A stretch of DNA of 64,000 nt from Escherichia coli (GTDB lineage: Bacteria > Pseudomonadota > Gammaproteobacteria > Enterobacterales > Enterobacteriaceae): the NCBI RefSeq assembly GCF_024223415.1, contig NZ_CP100500.1; one strand, written 5' to 3'. The first letter of the stretch is position 1, and each line of letters opens with the position of its first letter. The notes beneath the pieces are model-generated. The model searched no databases and was not told the origin of the DNA. It saw only the letters and a list, made by a program, of their open reading frames with translations. Of this stretch, positions 208 to 14,889 are shown one piece after another. A program made the position numbers and the translations under genes.

Positions 208-1335
208 GTGTTGAATACCTTAAGCACAGCTACTCAGTTCATAGATGCCATCGCCTCCAGATACAGCACTTACCCTGCTCAGCCCAGACGCATCTTACTC
301 TGGTGCTGCCATAACCCTTGCCTGTTAACGAAAAATTTTGCCGAGTCTCAGCCTCCCTTCACAGTTCACATCAGCAGTATTCACAGGCGTTACAAAATTT
401 ACAACGTCAACTGGGATTAATAGCCGGAGGTGAGGCCGGGAAACAGGCAGCAACGGCAGTGGGGCTACGTTGCAGTGCTGATACTCTTCTTCGCAGGGTT
501 ATTAATACCCCGGAGACGAAACAGTCGGGCGCGCCTCATGTCGGTATTGATGAGTGGGCGTGGCATCGGGGCCACCATTACGGCACGTTAATCGTCAATC
601 TTGATACTCACCGTCCCCTCGTCCTGCTTCCCGGTTGCGATCAGAGTACGCTGGCGACCTGGTTCAGAAAATATCCGGAAATACAGGTTGTCTCACGTGA
701 CCGTGGCGGAGTCTATGCGACAGCAGCACGTGAAGGTGCACCTCAGGCCAGACAGATAGCTGATCGATGGCACCTGCTAAAAAATATTGGCGATGCGCCT
801 GAACGAATGATGTACAGACAGATGCCTCTGATACGTCTTGTTGCCAGTGGGTTGTCACCAAAGAAATCACCTAAGCCAGTACTGTCTGTGCCTGTAGCAT
901 CGCTCCGTCGTCCGGAACGCCTTAAACAGCAAACCCGCCAAAAACGGCATCAGCGTTGGACAGAGGTTATGGCACTACATAACAAGGGATGTGGGTTCAG
1001 GGGAAATATCCCGTATTACAGGCTTATCACGTGTGACAGTCAGTCTCTGGGTGTGTTCAGGAACATTCCCTGAAATGTCAACCCGGCCTCCAGAGCGAGG
1101 ACTTCTGGACCCATGGAGGGAGTGGTTAAAAGAGCAACGAGAAAGTGGTAACTTCGGCGCGTGGCTGCAAGGATGGCAGCTGATGCTGCGGCTATATGTG
1201 AGGCAATCAGCAGTCGCTGGAATAATGGGGGTTGTCGAAAGTCATGTAAATCGACTAAAAATGCTGAAAGGCCAGATGTATGGTCGAGCCGGATTTGAAC
1301 TACTCAGGCAGAGGGTCATGAGTCCACTGGCATGA
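208..1335 (+). pseudogene. ISL3-family transposase remnant, split over several frames
   Basis: ORF 318-1073 has the ISL3 transposase core (GIDEWAWHRGHHYGT...VVSRDRGGVYA...ADRWHLLKNIGD); the C-terminal part continues in another frame (991-1335) and an N-terminal-like piece lies in a third (208-420). Confidence 0.6.
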
Positions 1336-1378
1336 AAATCTCCATCCAGGTTGCGTAAGAGCCACTTTTCATCCGTCG

Positions 1379-1870
1379 TTGACATTTGTATGCCGTCACT
1401 GTGGCACTTCTCGGCCCACATTGTGTAAATGGTGGCGCAGATATCTGGCTCAGGGCATCGCTGGTCTGGAAAGCTACAGCCGTCGCTCCAAGCGTTCACC
1501 ATCAACGAAAACCAGCACTTGCGAAGTCGCTCTGATTCTGGAAGTTACGTTCTCAGCGAAATCTGGGTGCAAGACGTATTCAAAGCGAGTTAAAACGACT
1601 TCATTCAATCTCACTGGCAATAGTGCGTATTACCGTGAAGGAGATCGGTGAGTAACGGCGTTTTTCAAGGTAGTTGTCGCCTGATGTAATAAAGGTTGGA
1701 CGTTCCCAAAAGACAGACAAAGCTGAGTTTTACGCTACCGTAGATCTTTCTGCTGATGACCTGAAGGGATTGCTAGCAGAATGGTAGCATTACTATAACA
1801 GGGAACGTCCTCATAGCGCTCACAACGGTAAAACTCCGATGGAACGCTACTTTGAACTTGCTGAGAAAAC
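1379..1870 (+). pseudogene. IS481-family transposase remnant
   Basis: ORF 1379-1651 has a transposase-type HTH N-terminus; around 1790-1870 an unlinked frame encodes ...YYNRERPHSAHNGKTPMERYFELAEK, a typical integrase-core C-terminus. The middle of the gene is missing. Confidence 0.5.
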
Positions 1871-2175
1871 ACCATACTCCGATGCCGTTCATGCAAACTA
1901 TCAGCCCAATGAAGAGCATATACAGGAACAGAATTACAAGCCTGAACTTGAACTGAGAAAATTGAAACGATGTCTATGAATCACACATTTTATTACAAGG
2001 CAACAACTACCTTGAAGCTCTATGTTGAGCCTGTTTACCATTCTGTGTAATATGCATTTTCTTTAAAGTGACCGTCAGGACGGTCACTGATTACCCATTC
2101 TGAAGAGACTGTAATTAAAATTGTGTAATTGCCTGTTTTTGATATGTTCACTCCAACAACGGAGACAGGCAAACG

Positions 2176-3336
2176 ATGGACGAAAAGAAACTTAAAGTCC
2201 TTGCGGCTGAACTGGCCAAAGGCCTTAAAACCGAAGCCGACCTCAACCAGTTTTCACGCATGTTGACAAAGCTTACCGTCGAAACGGCGCTCAATGCAGA
2301 ACTGACTGACCATCTAGGTCATGAGAAAAATGCTCCTAAATCAGGCTCTAATACCCGTAATGGCTACTCGTCAAAAACGGTATTGTGCGATGATGGCGAG
2401 ATCGAACTTAACACGCCGCGTGACCGTGAAAATACCTTCGAACCACAACTGGTGAAGAAAAATCAGACCCGCATTACCGGCATGGACAACCAGATCCTGG
2501 CGCTGTATGCCAGAGGGATGACTACCCGCGAAATTACCTCAGCCTTCAAAGAAATGTACGACGCCGATGTCTCGCCCACGCTGATATCCAAAGTGACCGA
2601 TGCGGTTAAAGAACAGGTCTCTGAATGGCAAAACCGACCGTTGGATGCACTGTATCCCATTGTTTATCTTGACTGTATTGTGGTTAAGGTTCGTCACAGC
2701 GGGAGTGTCATTAACAAAGCGGTGTTCCTCGCGCTGGGCATCAATACCGACGGTCAGAAAGAGCTGCTGGATATGTGGCTGGCCGAAAATGAAGGTGCAA
2801 AGTTCTGGCTGAATGTACTGACGGAACTGAAAAATCGCGGCCTGAACGATATCCTTATCGCCTTCGTGGACGGCCTGAAAGGCTTCCCGGAAGCGATAAA
2901 TAGCGTGTACCCGCAGACGCATATTCAGCTCTGCATCATCCATATGGTGCGCAACAGCCTGAAATTCGTGTCGTGGAAGGATTACAAAGCCGTCACCAGC
3001 GGGCTGAAAGCGGTATATCAGGCCCCGACAGAGGAAGCGGCGTTGATGGCGTTGGATAAGTTTGCAGGCGTCTGGGATGAAAAATACCCGCAAATCAGCA
3101 AGAGCTGGCGCACACACTGGGAAAATCTCAACACCTTCTTCGGTTACCCACCGGATATCCGCAAGGCCATCTACACGACGAATGCCATCGAATCGCTGAA
3201 CAGTGTCATTCGGCAGGCGATAAAGAAGCGCAAGGTGTTCCCAACGGACGACTCGGTGCGAAAAGTGATTTATCTGGCGATACAGTCGGCGTCAAAAAAT
3301 GGAGTATGCCAATCCAGAACTGGCGGCTGGCAATGA
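2176..3336 (+). CDS. IS256-family transposase with C-terminal frameshift
   Basis: 386-aa ORF with IS256/mutator-type transposase similarity. The frame breaks in an A-run near 3295-3300; the +1 frame continues KKWSMPIQNWRLAMSRFIIEFGDRLSEHL to a stop at 3381-3383, the expected transposase C-terminus. Confidence 0.85.
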   Translation: MDEKKLKVLAAELAKGLKTEADLNQFSRMLTKLTVETALNAELTDHLGHEKNAPKSGSNTRNGYSSKTVLCDDGEIELNTPRDRENTFEPQLVKKNQTRITGMDNQILALYARGMTTREITSAFKEMYDADVSPTLISKVTDAVKEQVSEWQNRPLDALYPIVYLDCIVVKVRHSGSVINKAVFLALGINTDGQKELLDMWLAENEGAKFWLNVLTELKNRGLNDILIAFVDGLKGFPEAINSVYPQTHIQLCIIHMVRNSLKFVSWKDYKAVTSGLKAVYQAPTEEAALMALDKFAGVWDEKYPQISKSWRTHWENLNTFFGYPPDIRKAIYTTNAIESLNSVIRQAIKKRKVFPTDDSVRKVIYLAIQSASKNGVCQSRTGGWQ

Positions 3337-3699
3337 GCCGTTTTATTATCGAGTTCGGTGACCGCCTTAGCGAGCACCTTTAATACGGCGGCAGTTACAC
3401 AGAATTATTTACAGGGTCATTCTGAATTCAGTGCAGAATTAAAACATGTGTGCAAAATAATTTAATTCAGACAGATTTTTATTTCACTATGGCTATCCCA
3501 GAACAATCAGTACAAATAATAAAAGACATATCACAGCAACACTCCACACTGACAGCGCAAAAATAAATGCCGCCTTTGTTATCTTCATATACAAGCAACC
3601 TGTCCTGATAATCACCAACTCATGTTTTATTCTTAACCATTCGTCACAAATACAACAAAAAATAACAGCAGCAGCACCGATATCACAATATAAGATACA

Positions 3700-4155
3700 T
3701 TATTCAACACCTGAATCCCCCGCAGCTTCTCTCCCCTTTATAAAACGCCCCTTCCGGAATCCAGACCGCTGCAGTGCACGACGAAGATGACCGTATACCG
3801 TCTTGTCATTCTGCCCCGTCTCTTCTGTAATCTCCGCAATACTTAAACCTCTGTAATACCGGTTCAGTACCGCTCTGCGCTCTTCCAGCGTCAACACACC
3901 TCCGGCCGCTCTCAGATTCAGCATCGACTTATTCAGAATACAGCAGGCCTCTCCGGTAAAAAGAATACGAACAATATCTGTATACTCATCATCACAGAAT
4001 ACAAAATAATATCTGAATGACCTGCCTGACTGCACCCTTCTTCTGTCTGATATGGCATCTTCTATATATCTGATTCGACTGCTTACGGTTCCAAATATCT
4101 CTCGCAGGGCTTTTTCAAAATAAATATCTCTCGTCGCCAGGATTATATCCAGCAT
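3700..4155 (-). CDS. small HTH protein with sigma-70 region-4-like C-terminus
   Basis: 151-aa ORF directly downstream of the adhesin on the same strand; C-terminal LTLEERRAVLNRYYRGLSIAEITEETGQNDKTVYGHLRRAL resembles a sigma-70 region 4 / LuxR-type HTH. Family unassigned. Confidence 0.5.
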   Translation of the reverse strand: MLDIILATRDIYFEKALREIFGTVSSRIRYIEDAISDRRRVQSGRSFRYYFVFCDDEYTDIVRILFTGEACCILNKSMLNLRAAGGVLTLEERRAVLNRYYRGLSIAEITEETGQNDKTVYGHLRRALQRSGFRKGRFIKGREAAGDSGVE

Positions 4156-4215
4156 CTCTGTACCTCATTATATCCCGGGGGACTCCCCCGGGACAGATAT
4201 CTAAATCCTGACCTG

Positions 4216-5358
4216 TCAGAACTCAAAATTCACACCAGCATTCCACGATGCGGATGACCCACCTGCAGCAACTGCAACTTTTCCTGCCACATTCTCTGTG
4301 AAACGGTAGCCCACGCCCACCGCAATGGCCTGCTCATCACGGTAACCACCAACGGCTGCTGTCGCGTTAAATTTTCCAACACTGTATGGCTGGAAAAGAC
4401 CGGCCAGTGCCGCGCTCTGGGCTGCACTCTCCCTTAACTCCTTCCGGTTCTCTTTAATCTGCTCCTGCATATTATTCATTCTCTCTGTCGCCATCTTCTG
4501 CCAGGCTTCCGTCAAATCCAGACGATGACTGTTATTCCTTATCGCTGCTGTATTTGAGGCTATTGCTGCATCCGTCTGCGCCCTGTTCTTCACAAGCACA
4601 TCGCTGAGATGTTCTGCCTGGCTTTTCGCTTCTTTACGGACATCCCGTACACTTTTATCTGTATAAGCCCGGGAAACCTGAACTGTTTCATCCGCTTTTT
4701 CTTTTATTTCATCCTGAAGAGCAAGAGAAGATGCATCCGTATACGCCACCGCTGCCGATGTGCCTGCAATAATATCCCTGCTGAGTTCATCACGTACTGC
4801 TGTAACCTGACTGTCAGTATGAGCACGGGCATCTCTGTATACACCACCTATCTCACCACGCAGACTGTCTCCCGACACCCGTACAGCATCTGCAATGGCG
4901 TTGTCCATCTGTCCTTTTGTGGCCGCATCACTATCCTTAACACCATCTGAAACATTTATAATCCGGCGGGTTTCCGGTGCACCATCAACTGAAACTCCAT
5001 ATCCTGAAGGACCGGCCCCTACAGAAAGTACATTGTTTTCTCCATTCACCTGAGAGCCATACCCCAGAGCGACACTGTTGTCTGCATTAAAAACAGCTGT
5101 CTTATTTCCCACTGCCATGGATTTATCCGCATCCAGAATTGCTGCACCACTACCTACGGCAAAATTATATCCTGTATCATTTAGTTGACGGTCAATCACA
5201 GCTACTTTTTCAACTGACTGACCGCCACCATCAATCCAGATAATACCCGCCGATGACTCAGTAAGTGTTTTATGAGCCAAAGCCTGAGATGAGAGCAGCA
5301 GGGCCACACTCACTGCCAGCGCGCTTTTCTTTAAAAAAGCATCACGTCTTTTAAGCAT
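4216..5358 (-). CDS. YadA-like trimeric autotransporter adhesin (Eib/YadA type)
   Basis: Start taken at the internal Met (MLKRRD...) followed by a signal-peptide-like stretch; repetitive head/stalk motifs, coiled-coil-like region, and C-terminal beta-barrel anchor ending ...[16 protein letters not shown]. Confidence 0.75.
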
Positions 5359-5844
5359 TCTGTTATTCTCCTGTATTATTACTTCACCAGCCAGAACGGT
5401 AGTGCGGAGCAAAAATACAGTGATAAGAATCCTCTTTTATTAATTTAATAATGCCAGGAATATTATTGTGTATAATATGCGCCCTCAATTTAAGCAGCAG
5501 AAAAGCAATGACGCGAAAATCATTAAAATACATACAGATAAAACATCATAACTATAATTATAATAAGCGCGCTTATTTTAGCATCTGAACATTTAAAGTA
5601 CTGCTATCACAAAACAATAAAAATCCTGGTTAATATCTCTGATGATTGAATGAGAAATTCACGATGTCTGGTGAGAATTCTGTTCAAAACGAGGAATGCA
5701 GACGTACACGTGGCAGGTATGGACTTCCACCGATTTAACTTTTTTCCTTCCTTGTATTTACACATCACACATTTTGCGCTACAAAAATTTCACGTGGCAC
5801 GCACCACGTGATCCGTAGAAAAGCCTCTTGTTACGAATTTCGTA

Positions 5845-8382: not shown

Positions 8383-9135
8383 TCACTGAGCTGTAATCAA
8401 TGTACAGCGCTGTACCGGGCGATGGGTAATACCGGTCACAACCGGTAACCCCAGAGACAATGCAACTGTTTTTAACGCAATATACTGGCCGGATGTATCA
8501 CCCCGGGCAGCCTGAAAACACCTTTCCACCCGGCATTGTCCGTCAGCACTTATCACCCGCCATGTCTGTTGCAATAAATCCACCCGTTGCGAACATTCTT
8601 CATCAACCGTGGCACTGACCCGTGGATGGCAAATGCTCGTCTGGCTGAGCAGCAACAGGCATCGCATTGTTGCTCCTCCATGTTGTTCCCGCAACCAGCG
8701 TAATACCACCGGTGGTGCTGGACTGGCCGTGTGATTACGTTCAGTAATACGCTCGTGCACCTGTCGGTAAAAGGAAGTACAGAATGCATGAATCTGTTGT
8801 CCGTTGATGTTTCCTTCTGCCGAATGGAGTGTGAAGTGGACGGCCAGCAGACGCGGCCAGTGATCCACCGCCTGCTGAATAAAACGCCGGATTTCCACCG
8901 GCTCTGAAAGTACGGTTTCGGTTATTTGCACGATTTGATCCCCTTGAATGTTGCTGAACCGGTGTCGGTACGCAGGAAAGCACGCCGAGACCGGTACGAT
9001 GCCTGTTACAGCGAAGAACGAGGAATGACAGACGGGGGCAGCAGGTCGCCAGCACCAGGGACAGGGCTGATTTCCACAATACCAACGCTGGTATTTTGCA
9101 CATTGCCAGCGTACCGGCATTACAACACGTTTCAT
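8383..9135 (-). CDS. Gp2-family (YagK/YfjJ-like) island protein, third paralog, possibly degenerate
   Basis: Shares a motif pattern with the two upstream paralogs (LLAVHFTLHS..., VLRWLREQHGG...MRCLLLLS). Start uncertain; the Met at 9135 would overlap the alpA stop in an ATGA arrangement. The N-terminal region is low-complexity. Confidence 0.45.
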   Translation of the reverse strand: MKRVVMPVRWQCAKYQRWYCGNQPCPWCWRPAAPVCHSSFFAVTGIVPVSACFPAYRHRFSNIQGDQIVQITETVLSEPVEIRRFIQQAVDHWPRLLAVHFTLHSAEGNINGQQIHAFCTSFYRQVHERITERNHTASPAPPVVLRWLREQHGGATMRCLLLLSQTSICHPRVSATVDEECSQRVDLLQQTWRVISADGQCRVERCFQAARGDTSGQYIALKTVALSLGLPVVTGITHRPVQRCTLITAQ

Positions 9136-9368
9136 GCTGCTGCCCCTCGTGATGCCTCGATTCGTTGCTGCATCCACTGCTCCACTTCACTTTTGTACCA
9201 GCGGCTGCTGCGCCCCAGTTTGATGGGTTTAGGGAAATGGCCTTCACTGATCAGCTTGTAAAACCATTTGTCGGTCATACCAGTGAAGCTGGTGATGTAG
9301 TTCATGTCGATCAGGGGATCGTCGGCACGCAGCAATACGCTGTCGTGACCTGTCATTGAGGTCAACAT
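9132..9368 (-). CDS. alpA: AlpA-family phage/island transcriptional regulator
   Basis: Small ORF with the AlpA-type HTH (MTDKWFYKLISEGHFPKPIKLGRSSRWYKSEVEQW); the true start may be an internal Met. Confidence 0.75.
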   Translation of the reverse strand: MLTSMTGHDSVLLRADDPLIDMNYITSFTGMTDKWFYKLISEGHFPKPIKLGRSSRWYKSEVEQWMQQRIEASRGAAA

Positions 9369-9436: not shown

Positions 9437-10039
9437 TCAGAGCTGGCCTGCTACGGGATACCAGGGATTACCGGCGAGGTAACGGGCTTCCGGATCGCGC
9501 ACACCACGACGATCGCGGGCGAAATCACTGAACGCCCATATCAGCTCTTTGAGTCTCTCTTCGCAGTCCGGTGAACAACTGTCCAGCGCCACATCCCGGG
9601 TTATCTGTTTCTGGTACGGTGCCGCTTCACCCGGTGACGCGAAGCCCAGTACGTTGCTCCAGGCATCCAGAATCAGCCGATCCAGTTCAGGGCCGTCGAA
9701 ATACTCCTGTCTGACGCACAGCACCACGTGGTATTCCGGTTTTTCAGGATGACGAGTCAGGAGCCAGCAGAGGTCACGTCCGGGTGTTGCATTCATCAGC
9801 GCACTGACGGTTTCGATAAAGGCCATACCGAACCAGGTTTTTCTGTCGCTGAAGATGTTGCCATGTTCCCCCGGCAGACGAAGCAGGATCCGCCGTATTC
9901 GGGAGCAGGACTGCTCGCGCAACACACGGTTGAGAACGCCGATGATTTTGTTCTGATAAGATGGCCAGAAGGGCGCCATGCTATAGTCGAAATAAGGGAT
10001 AGCATTCATAAGATATGTTCCGTTATACGCAGCCCACAA
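9437..10039 (-). CDS. Gp2-family (YagK/YfjJ-like) island protein
   Basis: 200-aa ORF paralogous to 10366-11097 (e.g. ...KPEYHVVLCVRQEYFDGPELDRLILDAWSNVLG); belongs to the family common in CP4-type islands. Confidence 0.6.
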   Translation of the reverse strand: MWAAYNGTYLMNAIPYFDYSMAPFWPSYQNKIIGVLNRVLREQSCSRIRRILLRLPGEHGNIFSDRKTWFGMAFIETVSALMNATPGRDLCWLLTRHPEKPEYHVVLCVRQEYFDGPELDRLILDAWSNVLGFASPGEAAPYQKQITRDVALDSCSPDCEERLKELIWAFSDFARDRRGVRDPEARYLAGNPWYPVAGQL

Positions 10040-10365: not shown

Positions 10366-11097
10366 TCACCTGCCATCCAGCAGACGCCCCGGCCCACGAC
10401 TGCAACCATAATTACGTTGCCCGGAACCGTCATGCTGCTTCGTCTCATATTTCACGAGATAACTGGCTCTGTTCCGGGCTTTCTGCAGCGCTTCCACATC
10501 ACCACGCTTGATCCAGAGAACAGCGGCTTCACCCGGCTTTTTTTCTGAAGCCTTCCTGGTATCAGAACATCCACCCGACAAAGGCGTGTCATCGGAAGAA
10601 GGGCGAGCATCAGACGATGCTGGTTTACGGGAAGGCGTCCACCTGGAAAAATGGGCCAGGCCATCGCCTTGCCAGGCCTCAAGATGCAGGGCGCTGCACC
10701 ATGCCTCCAGGATCATCGTCGCCAGCGAAGATGGTTCGCTGAAATCCCCTGGCGAGCACCAGGTATCTTTGTTGAGCAGCAATATCACGTGATAATGTTT
10801 CCTGCCTTTTTCCTTGCCAAACTCCCGACACCAGAAATAACGCAGAGTGGTTGCACGCACACGCTTGTTGGCACGTCGTTTTTTCCGCTGGTAAGCCTGG
10901 ATTTTGGCTTTCAGGGATTCGAAAAAACGAGAAATCACCGCTGAATCCGGATCGGGATCCATGATGGTGACAGGCATATACTCAGGGAAACGTAAATCCA
11001 CCCGGATTAACGAGACGGCACGGTGCTGCGACAGGGCACTGTCGAGAAGGCTGTCAAAACGGGATAACCAGTAAGCATTGTGTATTGGTTGATTCAT
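10366..11097 (-). CDS. Gp2-family (YagK/YfjJ-like) island protein
   Basis: 243-aa ORF (...RKHYHVILLLNKDTWCSPGDFSEPSSLATMILEAWCSAL...); its upstream leader shares a motif with the leader of 9437-10039. Confidence 0.6.
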   Translation of the reverse strand: MNQPIHNAYWLSRFDSLLDSALSQHRAVSLIRVDLRFPEYMPVTIMDPDPDSAVISRFFESLKAKIQAYQRKKRRANKRVRATTLRYFWCREFGKEKGRKHYHVILLLNKDTWCSPGDFSEPSSLATMILEAWCSALHLEAWQGDGLAHFSRWTPSRKPASSDARPSSDDTPLSGGCSDTRKASEKKPGEAAVLWIKRGDVEALQKARNRASYLVKYETKQHDGSGQRNYGCSRGPGRLLDGR

Positions 11098-12755
11098 GAT
11101 GAGAGATCTCCGTTGATTTGGATTGACTTCACATCATTAATCACCGCGGTAAAACTTTACGGCATCATGTCATTAAGCAATGCTACAACTCTCTGATTAA
11201 GAGTGATTGAAACGGAACAAACCATCCCGGAACGAAAAGATAATCCTGCACACAGCAGCAAAACACGCAACAACAGCATGAATGGATTTAAAAACGACAT
11301 GGACGACGAGAAAAGCCTGAAGGGAAAAGGATCCACAGAACATTCGAACAAAACACCAGAAACGCAACCAGAACGCTTCCTGGCAATGCAAATCAACAAC
11401 AACGCCAAAACCTACAGCTTAATCACACAACTCAATCACGAATGCGAATGACACGTTTAAAACCTGTTTACAGATAACGCCGTAACACGATCATCCCCAT
11501 CACCATCAGAATCGATTTTCTCATCCCGAAAATGTTACGTTTCACTACTCACCATAAAAACGATTAACCATCGATAACGTAAATCTCATCTGAATCAAAA
11601 AACCAAAACCAATCATCACACTTTCGCAATGCAAGAAGAAAAACCACATCATGACGAAAACAATGACCTTACATGAAAAAGCAAAACGTCAGGAATCGTT
11701 AATGCCTCAATCTGATTGTTATCAAAACATCCAGAAAGTCGTTTAACAGAATCGTCGTAAGCACATCGAAAAGAACGTCAGATCACCTCAGGAAAGTTCG
11801 GGTTGATTTAGCGTAAAGATACTTTTCTCAGCTTAACGTCGAAACACAAACCAAAAACCACAAACAACCAAAGCTCAGGAAAGGTTAAACGTCACATCAG
11901 TAAAATCGAATAGCAGATTGATTGCTTAAACAGGAAGGATTGTTTTACAGCAGCATTAAACTGATTTAGTTAACGTAAAATCAGAACTGACAGGTTTACT
12001 AACTTGGATGTGTATCAGTTCAAAAATGTGTACAGCAATGCGTAATGAAACACATTTAAAGGAGATTAATGGGAAAAGTGTGTAAATGCGTAAACAGGCA
12101 CTAATGAATCACTGGAGGAATACATACAAAACGACTTAATGAAAACATAAAAGGACCTAATGGAAAAGGTGTATATAATACCATATCCGACATTCTCAAC
12201 ATCTTAAGACATCCATGCAGACTGAATGTTGGTTTCAGTTTTTCACGGTAAGCATGAATCTTTTCTGTTCAAAAGCAGAGCAGATTTACTCTGGAATTAT
12301 TTTTCTTACTCCGTATTCTGTACAGCAAAAACTTGTGCTAACTTTACAGCAAACCATCATAATCAGCGTCTGTAGTCCCATCGCTTTACCCCATGAAAGT
12401 GAATCCATATGATGTGAGAGAGATAAGTCATCGTATCCGGTAAACACTGCTTACTATAACATAAGATCATTCAGTCAGTTTTATCTCTGAACTGACGATT
12501 ATGGCATGCTCATTTATATGGCTCACAGAGGAGTGTTATTATCCGTAAGCTTTAATCATCAAATCACATGACCATACCAAACTGGCGCTATATCAGCTCA
12601 TTTGACGCTCATTCCCTTTAGATTTCTTTATGTGTTTTTTGTCGATAATTAAAATGTAATATAAATTTAATATTTTCACATCATAAACACCATTTAAAAC
12701 CATCATCCTGAACATCATACAACAATATATTTTTACTAAAGCATGAATTGTATAT

Positions 12756-13904
12756 TTATATTAATTCAGGAAAATTATCAGGATTCACCTTTAAATTCAA
12801 CTGAATGTTACACTTAATTTCACTCAGCAGTTCTTCATGCGTGGATTTTATTATCCCTTTATCATAATCTATAAATACACACATGTTTTTCATGAATTCA
12901 AACCCTTTTCCTGTATACAGTTTGATGAATGCCACAAGAGCAAACATTTCAAGATGCAGCCATAATGCCACGTGAGTTTTTCGCAAAGTATAAAAAATTG
13001 AATTCGCCACTTTTTTACTTATTGCTCTTTTGTACTGTGAGTGCGCCAGATTCAGTAGTGGCAATTCTCTCTCGATAAATGAAAGTGAAAAAGGCGGGTA
13101 AATTGATGTCGGAAATATTTCAGGTCTTATGATATTTTCGATTTCCACCATAAATCTATCCATAGAACGAAAATCATTTTCTTTTTTTATTCTGGTATAG
13201 AGACCGCCTTTATTCCTTACTGCGACTTTTTTTCGTGCTATCCCCCCCAACATTTCCTCTAATTGTTTATTTATCTTCGTATCATTAAATACAACCATTC
13301 TTCTTATCATCCTGGGAAGGATGATAATATCAGAGCTTGAATCACTTGAACGGCAATTATTATTGATCCATGCAACTTCAAGTTGAAGTATCGGAACATT
13401 AAATTCTCTGGGGTTAATAACTCTCTGATATTGTTTTTTGTATGCGTTTTCATTAAGATATTCTCTGCTGTAGAGAAACTTATAGCAATATAATCTGACA
13501 ATATCCTTTATGTAAGATTTAAATGAGTCACCTGTAACAGATATATTTTTTCTTCTCAGTAACTCCTGTGTATTGAGCCATTCCCGTGACCGGAGTACTC
13601 CATTATGAAGACTTTTTCTTACTTGCTTTGAATTGCGCAATTGATGTAATATTTTTGCGTCCTCAACAATTCTCTTTCCCGTTTGATTTCTTGCAGCATC
13701 TATTACTCTGTCAAATATCTCCCGGTCCAGACTTTTGTCATATTTACTGATTATACGACAAATATTCCTGACCCGACGGTTCTCTTTATTTCGTTTCCAT
13801 AACTGATAATGATCATCACATAACCTCAGGGCATTTGCCTCATCAAATTCTGAAACAGGATTGCTGCATTTTTTATTCCGACAGATACCTTTGTTTTTAG
13901 CCAT
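12756..13904 (-). CDS. hypothetical protein, orphan AT-rich island cargo gene, function unknown
   Basis: Uninterrupted 382-aa ORF, visibly AT-rich against the flanking genes; N-terminal Cys/His cluster (CRNKKCSN...LCDDHYQLW), K/R-rich, no long hydrophobic segments. No family recognised by me. Divergent from the YeeP-like gene across a 100-bp intergenic region. Confidence 0.6.
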   Translation of the reverse strand: MAKNKGICRNKKCSNPVSEFDEANALRLCDDHYQLWKRNKENRRVRNICRIISKYDKSLDREIFDRVIDAARNQTGKRIVEDAKILHQLRNSKQVRKSLHNGVLRSREWLNTQELLRRKNISVTGDSFKSYIKDIVRLYCYKFLYSREYLNENAYKKQYQRVINPREFNVPILQLEVAWINNNCRSSDSSSDIIILPRMIRRMVVFNDTKINKQLEEMLGGIARKKVAVRNKGGLYTRIKKENDFRSMDRFMVEIENIIRPEIFPTSIYPPFSLSFIERELPLLNLAHSQYKRAISKKVANSIFYTLRKTHVALWLHLEMFALVAFIKLYTGKGFEFMKNMCVFIDYDKGIIKSTHEELLSEIKCNIQLNLKVNPDNFPELI

Positions 13905-14004
13905 ACTCTTCTTCCCGTCAATGGAAAAATTTTCACGTCCATATTACCTGACTGATAGGCCGGATTAATGTGATCCGGTTCAGTGAAATCAACAGGATAA
14001 CGGT

Positions 14005-14889
14005 ATGTCATTCAGCCATTCTTCCCTCTCCGCACACGTAAAGTCACATCTGACCTTTCTTCCTGAAGAAATTCGCCAGAAAATCCTTGAACATCTTCGC
14101 AGCGTCATTCAGTACGAACCCGTTATTGGCATTATGGGTAAATCCGGTGCCGGAAAAAGCAGCCTGTGCAATGCCATTTTTCAGTCCCGTGTCTGCGCCA
14201 CGCATCCGCTGAACGGCTGCACCCGTCAGGCTCATCGTCTTACCTTTCAGCCCGGTGAACGAAGAATGACGCTGGTCGATCTGCCCGGCACTGGCGAAAC
14301 ACCACAGCATGATCAGGAATACCGGGCACTTTACAGTCAGTTACTGCCCGAACTGGATCTGATTATCTGGATCCTGCGGGCTGATGAACGTGCGTATGCT
14401 GCCGACATCGCCATGCATCAGTTTTTACTGAATGAAGGTGCCGATCCCTCGCGTTTTCTGTTTGTTCTCAGCCATGCCGATCGCATCCACCCGGCTGAAG
14501 AATGGAACAACCAGAGCAGCACGCCATCCCGTCAGCAGGAACTCTCACTGGCGACGGTGACAGCCCGGGTGGCAACCCTGTTCCCTTCATCATTTCCGGT
14601 ACTCCCCATAGCCGCCCCTGCCGGCTGGAATCTTCCGGCATTTGTGTCTCTGATGATCCACGCCCTGCCACCACAGGCAACCAGCGCGGTTTATTCGCAT
14701 ATCCGGAATGAAAAGCGCACTGCGCAGGATCAGCAACACGCACAGCAGGCTTTTGGTGACGCCATCGGCCAGAGTTTTGACGCTGCCATTGCCCGGTTCA
14801 GCTTTCCGGCCTGGATGCTGCAGCTTCTGCGCAAAGCCCGTGATCGCATTATCCGCCTGCTGATCACACTGTGGGATCGCCTGTTCTGA
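14005..14889 (+). CDS. YeeP/YfjP/YkfA-family GTPase
   Basis: 294-aa ORF with P-loop GIMGKSGAGKSSLCNAIF and DLPGTGE motif; typical first gene of the CP4-type conserved module. Confidence 0.8.
   Translation: MSFSHSSLSAHVKSHLTFLPEEIRQKILEHLRSVIQYEPVIGIMGKSGAGKSSLCNAIFQSRVCATHPLNGCTRQAHRLTFQPGERRMTLVDLPGTGETPQHDQEYRALYSQLLPELDLIIWILRADERAYAADIAMHQFLLNEGADPSRFLFVLSHADRIHPAEEWNNQSSTPSRQQELSLATVTARVATLFPSSFPVLPIAAPAGWNLPAFVSLMIHALPPQATSAVYSHIRNEKRTAQDQQHAQQAFGDAIGQSFDAAIARFSFPAWMLQLLRKARDRIIRLLITLWDRLF

Follow-up and report, generated by a model that had tools for sequence, protein, structure and literature searches.

The question raised by this locus is what an AT-rich gene that fits no known family does in an Escherichia coli genomic island, and whether it is passing cargo or a regular part of the island. 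The gene lies on the minus strand, at positions 12756-13904, of a 64,000-nt stretch of contig NZ_CP100500.1 (assembly GCF_024223415.1), here called the window. We found that the window holds a truncated allele of a longer protein and that the gene and the neighbouring GTPase gene are fixed divergent partners, with a conserved 100-bp control region, in tRNA-targeting islands that encode AlpA and Rep. Judged from sequence comparisons, the protein is a zinc-knuckle protein whose ancestor was a phage-type HNH endonuclease; it has lost the catalytic residues and gained a novel C-terminal domain. The family is best described as undescribed but common, ancient within its islands and a partner among their backbone genes, a pseudo-nuclease of HNH origin. 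We are confident about the identity and evolutionary status of the gene. The composite account, in which the window carries a truncated allele of an HNH-derived, catalysis-lost GTPase partner that acts as a DNA-binding factor of the island, has in our judgement about an even chance of being right.

The open reading frame, its truncation and its distribution

Three features define the gene in the window:

12756-13904, minus strand: ATG-started, uninterrupted open reading frame (ORF) of 382 amino acids (aa), a truncated allele (E383*) of the 407-aa protein WP_045147348.1 of strain E41
12756-12758, minus strand: premature stop TAA, which is GAA (Glu383) in the common allele; a single base, 12758, differs from strain E41 (L001)
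12681-12755, minus strand: 24 sense codons and the original stop, now untranslated, encoding IYNSCFSKNILLYDVQDDGFKWCL, in which lie the conserved YN(S)xFS motif and the invariant residues Y385 and N386

The ORF is a real gene. At its own base composition, 382 codons free of stops would arise by chance with P of about 7e-15, and the ratio of nonsynonymous to synonymous substitution rates (dN/dS) is 0.28, so that a preliminary description of the window was right to regard the frame as genuine. The same description missed the truncation. In strain E41, where a 3.1-kb region is 99.8% identical to the window, the gene is annotated as 407 aa; within the gene only base 12758 differs, and the E41 frame runs 25 codons further, to 12681. 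The window ORF is a rare nonsense allele (E383*, GAA to TAA) and not the full gene, as 786 contigs have the exact 407-aa protein and 7 the exact 382-aa one. The closest complete E. coli genome is 99.9% identical to the window sequence here, and none reaches 100%. Since the 382-aa allele is otherwise identical in protein sequence to the common form, the stop mutation is recent. Among the 25 lost residues, Y385 and N386 are invariant in 15/15 aligned family members, and in the AlphaFold2 (AF2) model residues 381-407 form the end of a helix and a beta-hairpin at a predicted local distance difference test score (pLDDT) of 76-92. The truncated copy is probably impaired.

A 382-aa protein of the other lineage (P0004) was considered as a second, independent nonsense allele and rejected, as its contigs simply stop 0-2 nt past codon 382. 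Contig breaks at this point, where the window has its stop codon, occur in at least 16 independent assemblies (L012-L014 are contigs that carry P0004). They probably reflect multi-copy islands that differ at this hypervariable codon (E, D, N or stop) and would thereby give the assembly graph a branch point.

The composition of the ORF (0.344 guanine plus cytosine, GC) does differ sharply from that of the flanking genes (0.52-0.58) and of the whole window (0.491), as had been remarked. The AT-rich tract, at about 11100-14000, is wider than the ORF and includes 1.6 kb of apparently non-coding DNA. The encoded protein is basic (isoelectric point, pI, 9.6; 72 K+R vs. 47 D+E), with a pI of 9.6 in all three of its segments. 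The claim that it has no obvious transmembrane segments is only roughly correct: the helix at residues 312-330 reaches a peak Kyte-Doolittle mean of 1.68 (19-residue window), yet it bears an invariant Glu and packs within the predicted helical domain.

The gene is not the orphan it was first thought to be. We found it in 975 of the 5,426 complete E. coli genomes (18%), at 1,066 places; the lineage of the window accounts for 35 genomes, and another, with a DNA identity of about 90.8%, for 932. Between these two lineages the dN/dS of 0.28 is uniform along the length of the gene, with values of 0.21 for the GTPase and 0.48 for Gp2, and protein identities are 86% for the gene, 87.5% for the GTPase and 90% for Gp2. 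It follows that the gene and its neighbours diverged together, with the gene under purifying selection. Relatives with 28-37% identity hold the same position in Klebsiella michiganensis, Citrobacter, metagenomic contigs and other Enterobacterales, and every syntenic relative has a GC content of 28-37% against 47-52% in its flanks. As the relatives are all equally AT-rich, AT-richness is a standing property of the family and no mark of recent import, contrary to the foreign origin that had been read from the composition. Across genera, identity tracks that of the island backbone: 29-37% for the partner, 25-36% for Rep, 51-68% for the GTPase, 59-68% for AlpA and 72-73% for DUF932, which makes the partner and Rep the two fastest-evolving backbone proteins.

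The family is small, unannotated and confined to Enterobacterales. Among 1.84 billion cluster representatives we found 26 matches, about ten of them full-length, and the 18 structural neighbours in AFDB50 all come from Enterobacterales (Klebsiella, Salmonella, Serratia, Providencia, Lelliottia). A profile search of a 5.8-billion-protein set added no further distant members, and one of the two most distant, P0038, is a singleton. No relative was found by tblastn in phage and plasmid records, the phage set comprising 50,697 records. A scan of GTDB species representatives with strict peptide patterns gave two loci. One of the two (L020, contig CACSKA010000007.1) is labelled 'Chryseobacterium sp. 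18061', has 48% GC and is 97.7% identical to an Enterobacteriaceae contig; the assembly behind it is probably mislabelled or contaminated.

Zinc knuckle and HNH ancestry

The protein can be divided into the following segments, given with their coding positions in the window:

13806-13883, minus strand: N-terminal zinc knuckle, residues 8-33, CRNKKCSNPVSEFDEANALRLCDDHY, with the pattern C-x4-C-x15-C-x2-H
13293-13388, minus strand: putative HNH-derived beta-beta-alpha block, residues 173-204, LQLEVAWINNNCRSSDSSSDIIILPRMIRRMV, with W179, D192 and R201 where HNH enzymes have H, N and N
12759-13244, minus strand: family-specific helical C-terminal domain, residues about 221-382 as kept, with conserved GGLY, LPL..LA..Y.R and E319

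The N-terminal Cys/His cluster and the basic character of the protein, both noted earlier, were borne out. C8, C13, C29 and H32 are invariant in 15/15 members, and residues 11-40 are modelled by AF2 with a pLDDT of 89. The number of knuckles varies in the family: in P0018 the N-terminal knuckle is duplicated, and P0034 and P0038, which are the most distant members, possess a second knuckle (C-x2-C...C-x3-H) with no counterpart in the E. coli subgroup.

The evidence for HNH ancestry comes through P0034 and P0038, in which the central block reads LEVSHRYPNSKGG..N..N..I.P..INRM. P0038 matches the 'HNH endonuclease' families phrog_8660 (E = 8.8e-7, residues 31-201) and phrog_1271 (1.5e-4, in the knuckle region), and P0034 matches phrog_1271 there at 0.073. 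Residues 143-189 of P0038 also match a Cas9d model weakly (0.019), in a stretch that we take to be the HNH domain from its place in the model. The E. coli protein is collinear with P0038 over residues 8-390, with E = 1e-13 in pairwise comparison and 4.9e-4 against the 1.84-billion library. In its AF2 model the central block comprises strands at residues 175-179 and 193-197 and a helix at 198-219.

Comparison with the phage-type HNH (His-Me finger) endonucleases of PHROG 8660/1271 shows what was kept and what was lost. The homology covers the N-terminal half; P0038 and P0034 keep E-x-S-H...PNxKGG...N...N, and the E. coli protein keeps the zinc knuckle, E176 and P197 and, to judge from the AF2 model, probably the beta-beta-alpha topology. 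Unlike these enzymes, it has W, D and R for the catalytic His, the structural Asn and the metal-binding Asn, it carries about 190 extra C-terminal residues that match nothing, and its gene sits in chromosomal islands. Such replacements are general in the family: in 13 of 15 members the His has given way to W, F, Y or K, the first Asn to D and the second to R, and the PNxKGG loop is missing. A His at the general-base position is found only in P0034 and P0038, and the remote paralogue of 310 aa described below has Q. Loss of catalysis is therefore likely in our assessment of these residues, and because the catalytic features fail we filed the protein as HNH-derived and not as an HNH nuclease. 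Within the block, E176 and P197 never vary, and D192 is conserved.

No curated family covers the gene, in agreement with the earlier statement that its function is undescribed and that it belongs to no known family. Sequence searches of Pfam, NCBIfam, PADLOC and PDB with the protein, the family profile and individual distant members gave nothing significant, and no insertion sequence (IS) transposase or abortive infection (Abi) family was matched in Pfam, NCBIfam, PHROGs or PADLOC. In PADLOC-DB v2 the window protein hit 0 families at E up to 1; six relatives, searched at E up to 10, gave a single match at chance level (P0025 to DpdJ, E = 0.031), and the 310-aa paralogue gave none. For the helical C-terminal domain, structure searches returned no neighbours outside the family. 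Three relatives in AFDB bear the automated name 'HNH endonuclease'. The UniRef/UniProt name of a K. michiganensis member (P0016, A0AAX3CP38), 'Reverse transcriptase', was rejected: there is no RVT domain, and the 15 members have no Pfam match at E <= 0.001.

The GTPase partner, the control region and cassette exchange

The surroundings of the gene are organised as follows; the last line gives the alternative form found in other E. coli islands:

14005-14889, plus strand: YeeP/YfjP-type (MMR_HSR1) GTPase gene, the first gene of a DUF932 / antirestriction / RadC / CbeA-CbtA operon
13905-14004: 100-bp divergent intergenic region, with the box ATATTACC at 13941-13948 (plus strand) and the inverted repeat CCGGAT/ATCCGG at 13960-13978
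11098-12680: AT-rich tract (37% GC) that separates the gene from the Gp2-like Rep gene, apparently non-coding and included in the exchangeable cassette
10366-11097, minus strand: Inovirus Gp2 / YagK-YfjJ-type (HUH Rep-like) gene, conserved, which borders the cassette on the side away from the GTPase gene
L015:3962-4894 and L016:3945-4895, minus strand: remote paralogues of 310/316 aa (WP_023155730.1 and WP_000157734.1)

The divergent arrangement across 100 bp that had been described for the window recurs in other islands. With a junction-spanning probe, the junction of the ORF and the GTPase gene was found intact in 970 of the 975 E. coli genomes that have the gene. In L002, L004, L007 and L008, as in the E. 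coli lineages, the gene is divergent from the GTPase gene across a gap of 97-106 bp, with AlpA and Gp2 on its other side. The order there differs, being partner, gap, Gp2, Gp2-like and AlpA in E. coli and partner, AlpA and Gp2 in other genera. This constancy, which extends to relatives at 28-37% identity, does not fit the earlier view of the gene as strain-specific cargo; recognisable defence cargo in the loci of other genera (type I restriction-modification, TIR, BrxR and others) lies further off, beyond AlpA and Rep. The GTPase itself has an Era/Der-like MMR_HSR1 domain in its N-terminal part, and its C-terminal residues 183-284 match PADLOC LeoBC, a dynamin-like candidate defence protein (E = 3.8e-7). 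In Enterobacteriaceae bacterium RIT691 and relatives (L009/L010, L019/L020), a family member has no GTPase neighbour and is followed, after a 665-bp gap, by a WYL protein; the pairing can therefore be lost.

The intergenic box is invariant in all syntenic loci and reads as a -10-like hexamer on either strand; in some loci it is also found at other places. Of six distant loci, five have the inverted repeat; 4/8 of its pairs show a compensatory change and its folding z-scores are -2 to -2.9; the covariation rests on six independent sequences. Simple promoter and terminator scans gave no enrichment over shuffles. The 80 nt nearest to the GTPase gene are common to islands with either form of the partner and therefore belong to the GTPase operon. 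This segment probably comprises the promoter of that operon and a hairpin in its 5' untranslated region.

The alternative form of the partner was found in E. coli islands whose GTPase gene is 94-96% and whose Gp2 gene is 90-95% identical (nucleotides, for Gp2) to those of islands with the 407-aa form, where a hypothetical protein of 310/316 aa is encoded in the same divergent position and across the same gap. Going upstream from the GTPase gene, the two island types cease to be homologous in DNA some 75 nt before its ATG and become so again near Gp2; the exchanged segment is 2.3-3.3 kb long. The family hidden Markov model (HMM) scores the 310/316-aa proteins at 33.6 and 24.8 bits, vs. a maximum of 7.3 bits for 2,000 shuffled sequences, and the alignment is collinear at positions 91-370. 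They are less than 20% identical to the 407-aa form, lack the zinc knuckle and the first ~90 residues, have another C-terminus and show a degenerate HNH block. On these comparisons they are remote paralogues, exchanged as a cassette between conserved flanks. The description of a variable cargo slot is accordingly right in that the interval between Rep and the GTPase varies, and wrong in that the alternative cassette carries a remote homologue and not unrelated cargo. Islands with the alternative form add a convergent, unannotated 269-aa gene whose C-terminus gives weak hints of ribbon-helix-helix or RepB-regulator proteins (E ~0.08-0.27).

The paralogue was found at 822 places in 743 E. coli genomes; its adjacency to the GTPase gene was seen in the sampled loci. 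Of the 2,539 close GTPase loci that megablast detects, the two forms together cover about 1,890, and the family is not present in all islands of the class. With the more sensitive junction probe, part of which also aligns to GTPase relatives at a greater distance, 8,608 places were found. In CP4-57 of K-12, the interval between yfjJ (Gp2-like) and yfjP (GTPase) holds AbpAB, yfjM and RnlAB. We considered yfjM or another CP4-57 ORF as a remnant of the family and rejected this, since the family HMM found nothing in that interval.

Possible roles and the island context

We propose that the protein would bind DNA in a sequence- or structure-specific manner, without catalysis, as a factor in the service of the island itself. 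The invariant zinc knuckle and the basic character of all segments make DNA binding plausible. Such a factor could regulate the divergent GTPase operon or act as an accessory to DNA processing of the island, and its fast evolution and the swapping of its cassette would follow because the partner carries the specificity. A regulatory or accessory role of this kind is a tentative assignment, somewhat short of an even chance. Several points weigh against the proposal. The E. coli protein matches no HNH model in Pfam, NCBIfam or PHROG, fold searches recovered no HNH structure, and the apparent HNH link is transitive, through P0038 and P0034. The DNA binding, the regulation and any other activity suggested here are each deduced from sequence. 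The interval in CP4-57 of K-12 has no family remnant and L009 and L010 carry a family member without the GTPase, so that the pairing is not universal across the GTPase superfamily. The box and the repeat are identical with the 407-aa or the 310-aa form, which argues against an operator specific to one partner. Finally, fast divergence, AT-richness and cassette exchange are also typical of genes of defence or anti-defence.

This last point leads to the main rival, a conflict function, in which the protein would work in defence or in anti-defence (establishment), either by itself or together with the GTPase in a module of two genes. It could, for instance, be a dead nuclease that binds DNA and detects or blocks nucleic-acid enzymes, foreign ones or those of the host. 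A conflict function would suit an AT-rich gene of HNH ancestry that outpaces its neighbours in divergence and is swapped for a remote paralogue, beside an operon encoding antirestriction, RadC and a toxin-antitoxin pair and in the very interval where K-12 CP4-57 has AbpAB and RnlAB; the LeoBC match of the GTPase points the same way, although it spans part of that protein and is not a system-level match. Against this, 7 family members and the paralogue have no PADLOC match, the catalytic residues are lost, dN/dS of 0.28 gives no sign of positive selection, and the geometry on the GTPase side is fixed across genera while defence systems vary elsewhere in the same islands. We regard a conflict function as unlikely, and the defence or toxin-like role suggested in the preliminary description found no positive evidence, with 0/7 family members matched by PADLOC and the HNH catalytic residues lost. 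The K-12 genes are comparable in location only, between the Gp2-like gene and the GTPase gene of a related island; AbpAB and RnlAB share no homology with the protein, are multi-gene systems with recognisable enzymatic domains and are not joined to the promoter region of the GTPase. An active nuclease, whether homing-type or another HNH endonuclease with a non-canonical active site, would accord with the ancestry, with the invariant E176 and P197 and the conserved D192, and with the automated names of the three AFDB relatives. It is hard to reconcile with the change of a metal-ligand Asn to Arg, the loss of the PNxKGG loop and the lack of any HNH model matching these members; moreover, different branches have W, F, Y, K or Q instead of the general-base His, so nothing holds this position to a catalytic residue. 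We consider it very improbable.

The protein could also serve the HUH-type, Gp2-like Rep, by recognising a rolling-circle or transfer origin in the intergenic region or by redirecting helper-phage packaging, as phage HNH proteins assist terminases. An invariant ATATTAC box exceeds what a -10 hexamer needs and adjoins a covarying inverted repeat, and the partner and Rep evolve fastest in the backbone. The nick sites of HUH Rep proteins (such as TAATATT/AC in geminiviruses) may share the ATATTAC core of the box. The islands encode both an HUH Rep and AlpA and have been proposed, in two recent preprints, to be phage-satellite-like (PMC12458937; 10.1101/2024.08.29.610337). The box and hairpin follow the GTPase gene whichever partner form is present, the box is a plausible -10 element on either strand and is found elsewhere in some loci, and with a possible nick-site likeness and a covariation from only six independent sequences we judge a Rep accessory improbable. 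Improbable, too, is that the window's copy is a non-functional relic inactivated by its premature stop. That copy has lost 25 residues, including Y385, N386 and the confidently modelled hairpin, and the allele is rare (7 vs. 786 contigs) and recent; still, it retains 382 of 407 residues with both N-terminal modules intact, so partial or altered function is possible. A relic would in any case concern the window copy alone and is compatible with the proposed DNA-binding factor as the explanation for the family.

A bolder version of the DNA-binding proposal, which we consider rather unlikely, is that the partner and its 310-aa paralogue form a specificity-setting master switch of a large and still uncharacterised class of satellite-like islands of Enterobacterales. 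A dead-HNH DNA binder would then restrain the GTPase / antirestriction / toxin-antitoxin operon or the Rep origin and answer a helper-phage or transfer signal. If so, cassette exchange would re-tune the mobilising signal, and the partner would be a Gram-negative functional counterpart, built on a nuclease scaffold, of Stl in Staphylococcus aureus pathogenicity islands (SaPIs). As with Stl-type master repressors, the gene is divergent from the main operon across a short control region, is highly divergent between similar islands and has alternative versions swapped between conserved flanks. The analogy is functional only: no sequence or fold relationship to Stl was detected, the family has no helix-turn-helix, the candidate operator is constant across partner forms, and repression is taken over by analogy. 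Gram-negative phage-inducible chromosomal islands use AlpA and are not known to have an Stl-like repressor.

The same two preprints describe islands of this general class, which combine an integrase and AlpA with a Rep of HUH or Gp2-like type, a 'moron' module (RadC/ArdB/CbtA) and cargo for defence, and present them as uncharacterised, also in regulation and mobilisation, and possibly satellite-like (PMC12458937; 10.1101/2024.08.29.610337). Section 11 of PMC12458937 does not mention the gene, nor do the keyword passages of 10.1101/2024.08.29.610337, a text that has neither 'HNH' nor 'GTPase', and literature searches found no description of it and no paper citing its accessions. Islands with the GTPase / DUF932 / antirestriction / RadC / CbtA genes are among the commonest accessory elements of E. 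coli and carry virulence and defence cargo. The gene offers a concrete, testable candidate for a control or DNA-processing step of these islands and marks a cassette-exchange point with two alternative forms; the window copy is of lower value for this because it is truncated.

The remaining observations concern the rest of the island. The tract at 11098-12680 is about 76% identical between the E. coli lineages, vs. about 90% for the flanking genes, and is strongly A-skewed on the plus strand. It has no ORF above 83 aa, and tblastx, blastn and tblastn revealed no remnants in it of AlpA, of the other cassette or of other genes; Rfam gave no match over 10900-14200. RefSeq annotates one 57-aa hypothetical protein within the tract (11278-11451, plus strand). 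Two tandem Gp2/YagK-YfjJ-like genes (9437-10039 and 10366-11097, minus strand) lie between AlpA (9132-9368) and the AT-rich gap. At the left of the window, positions 318-5412 hold ISL3 and IS256 transposase genes and a gene for a YadA-like trimeric autotransporter (4216-5412, minus strand); this part resembles strain E41, and the island is accordingly heavily IS-ridden.

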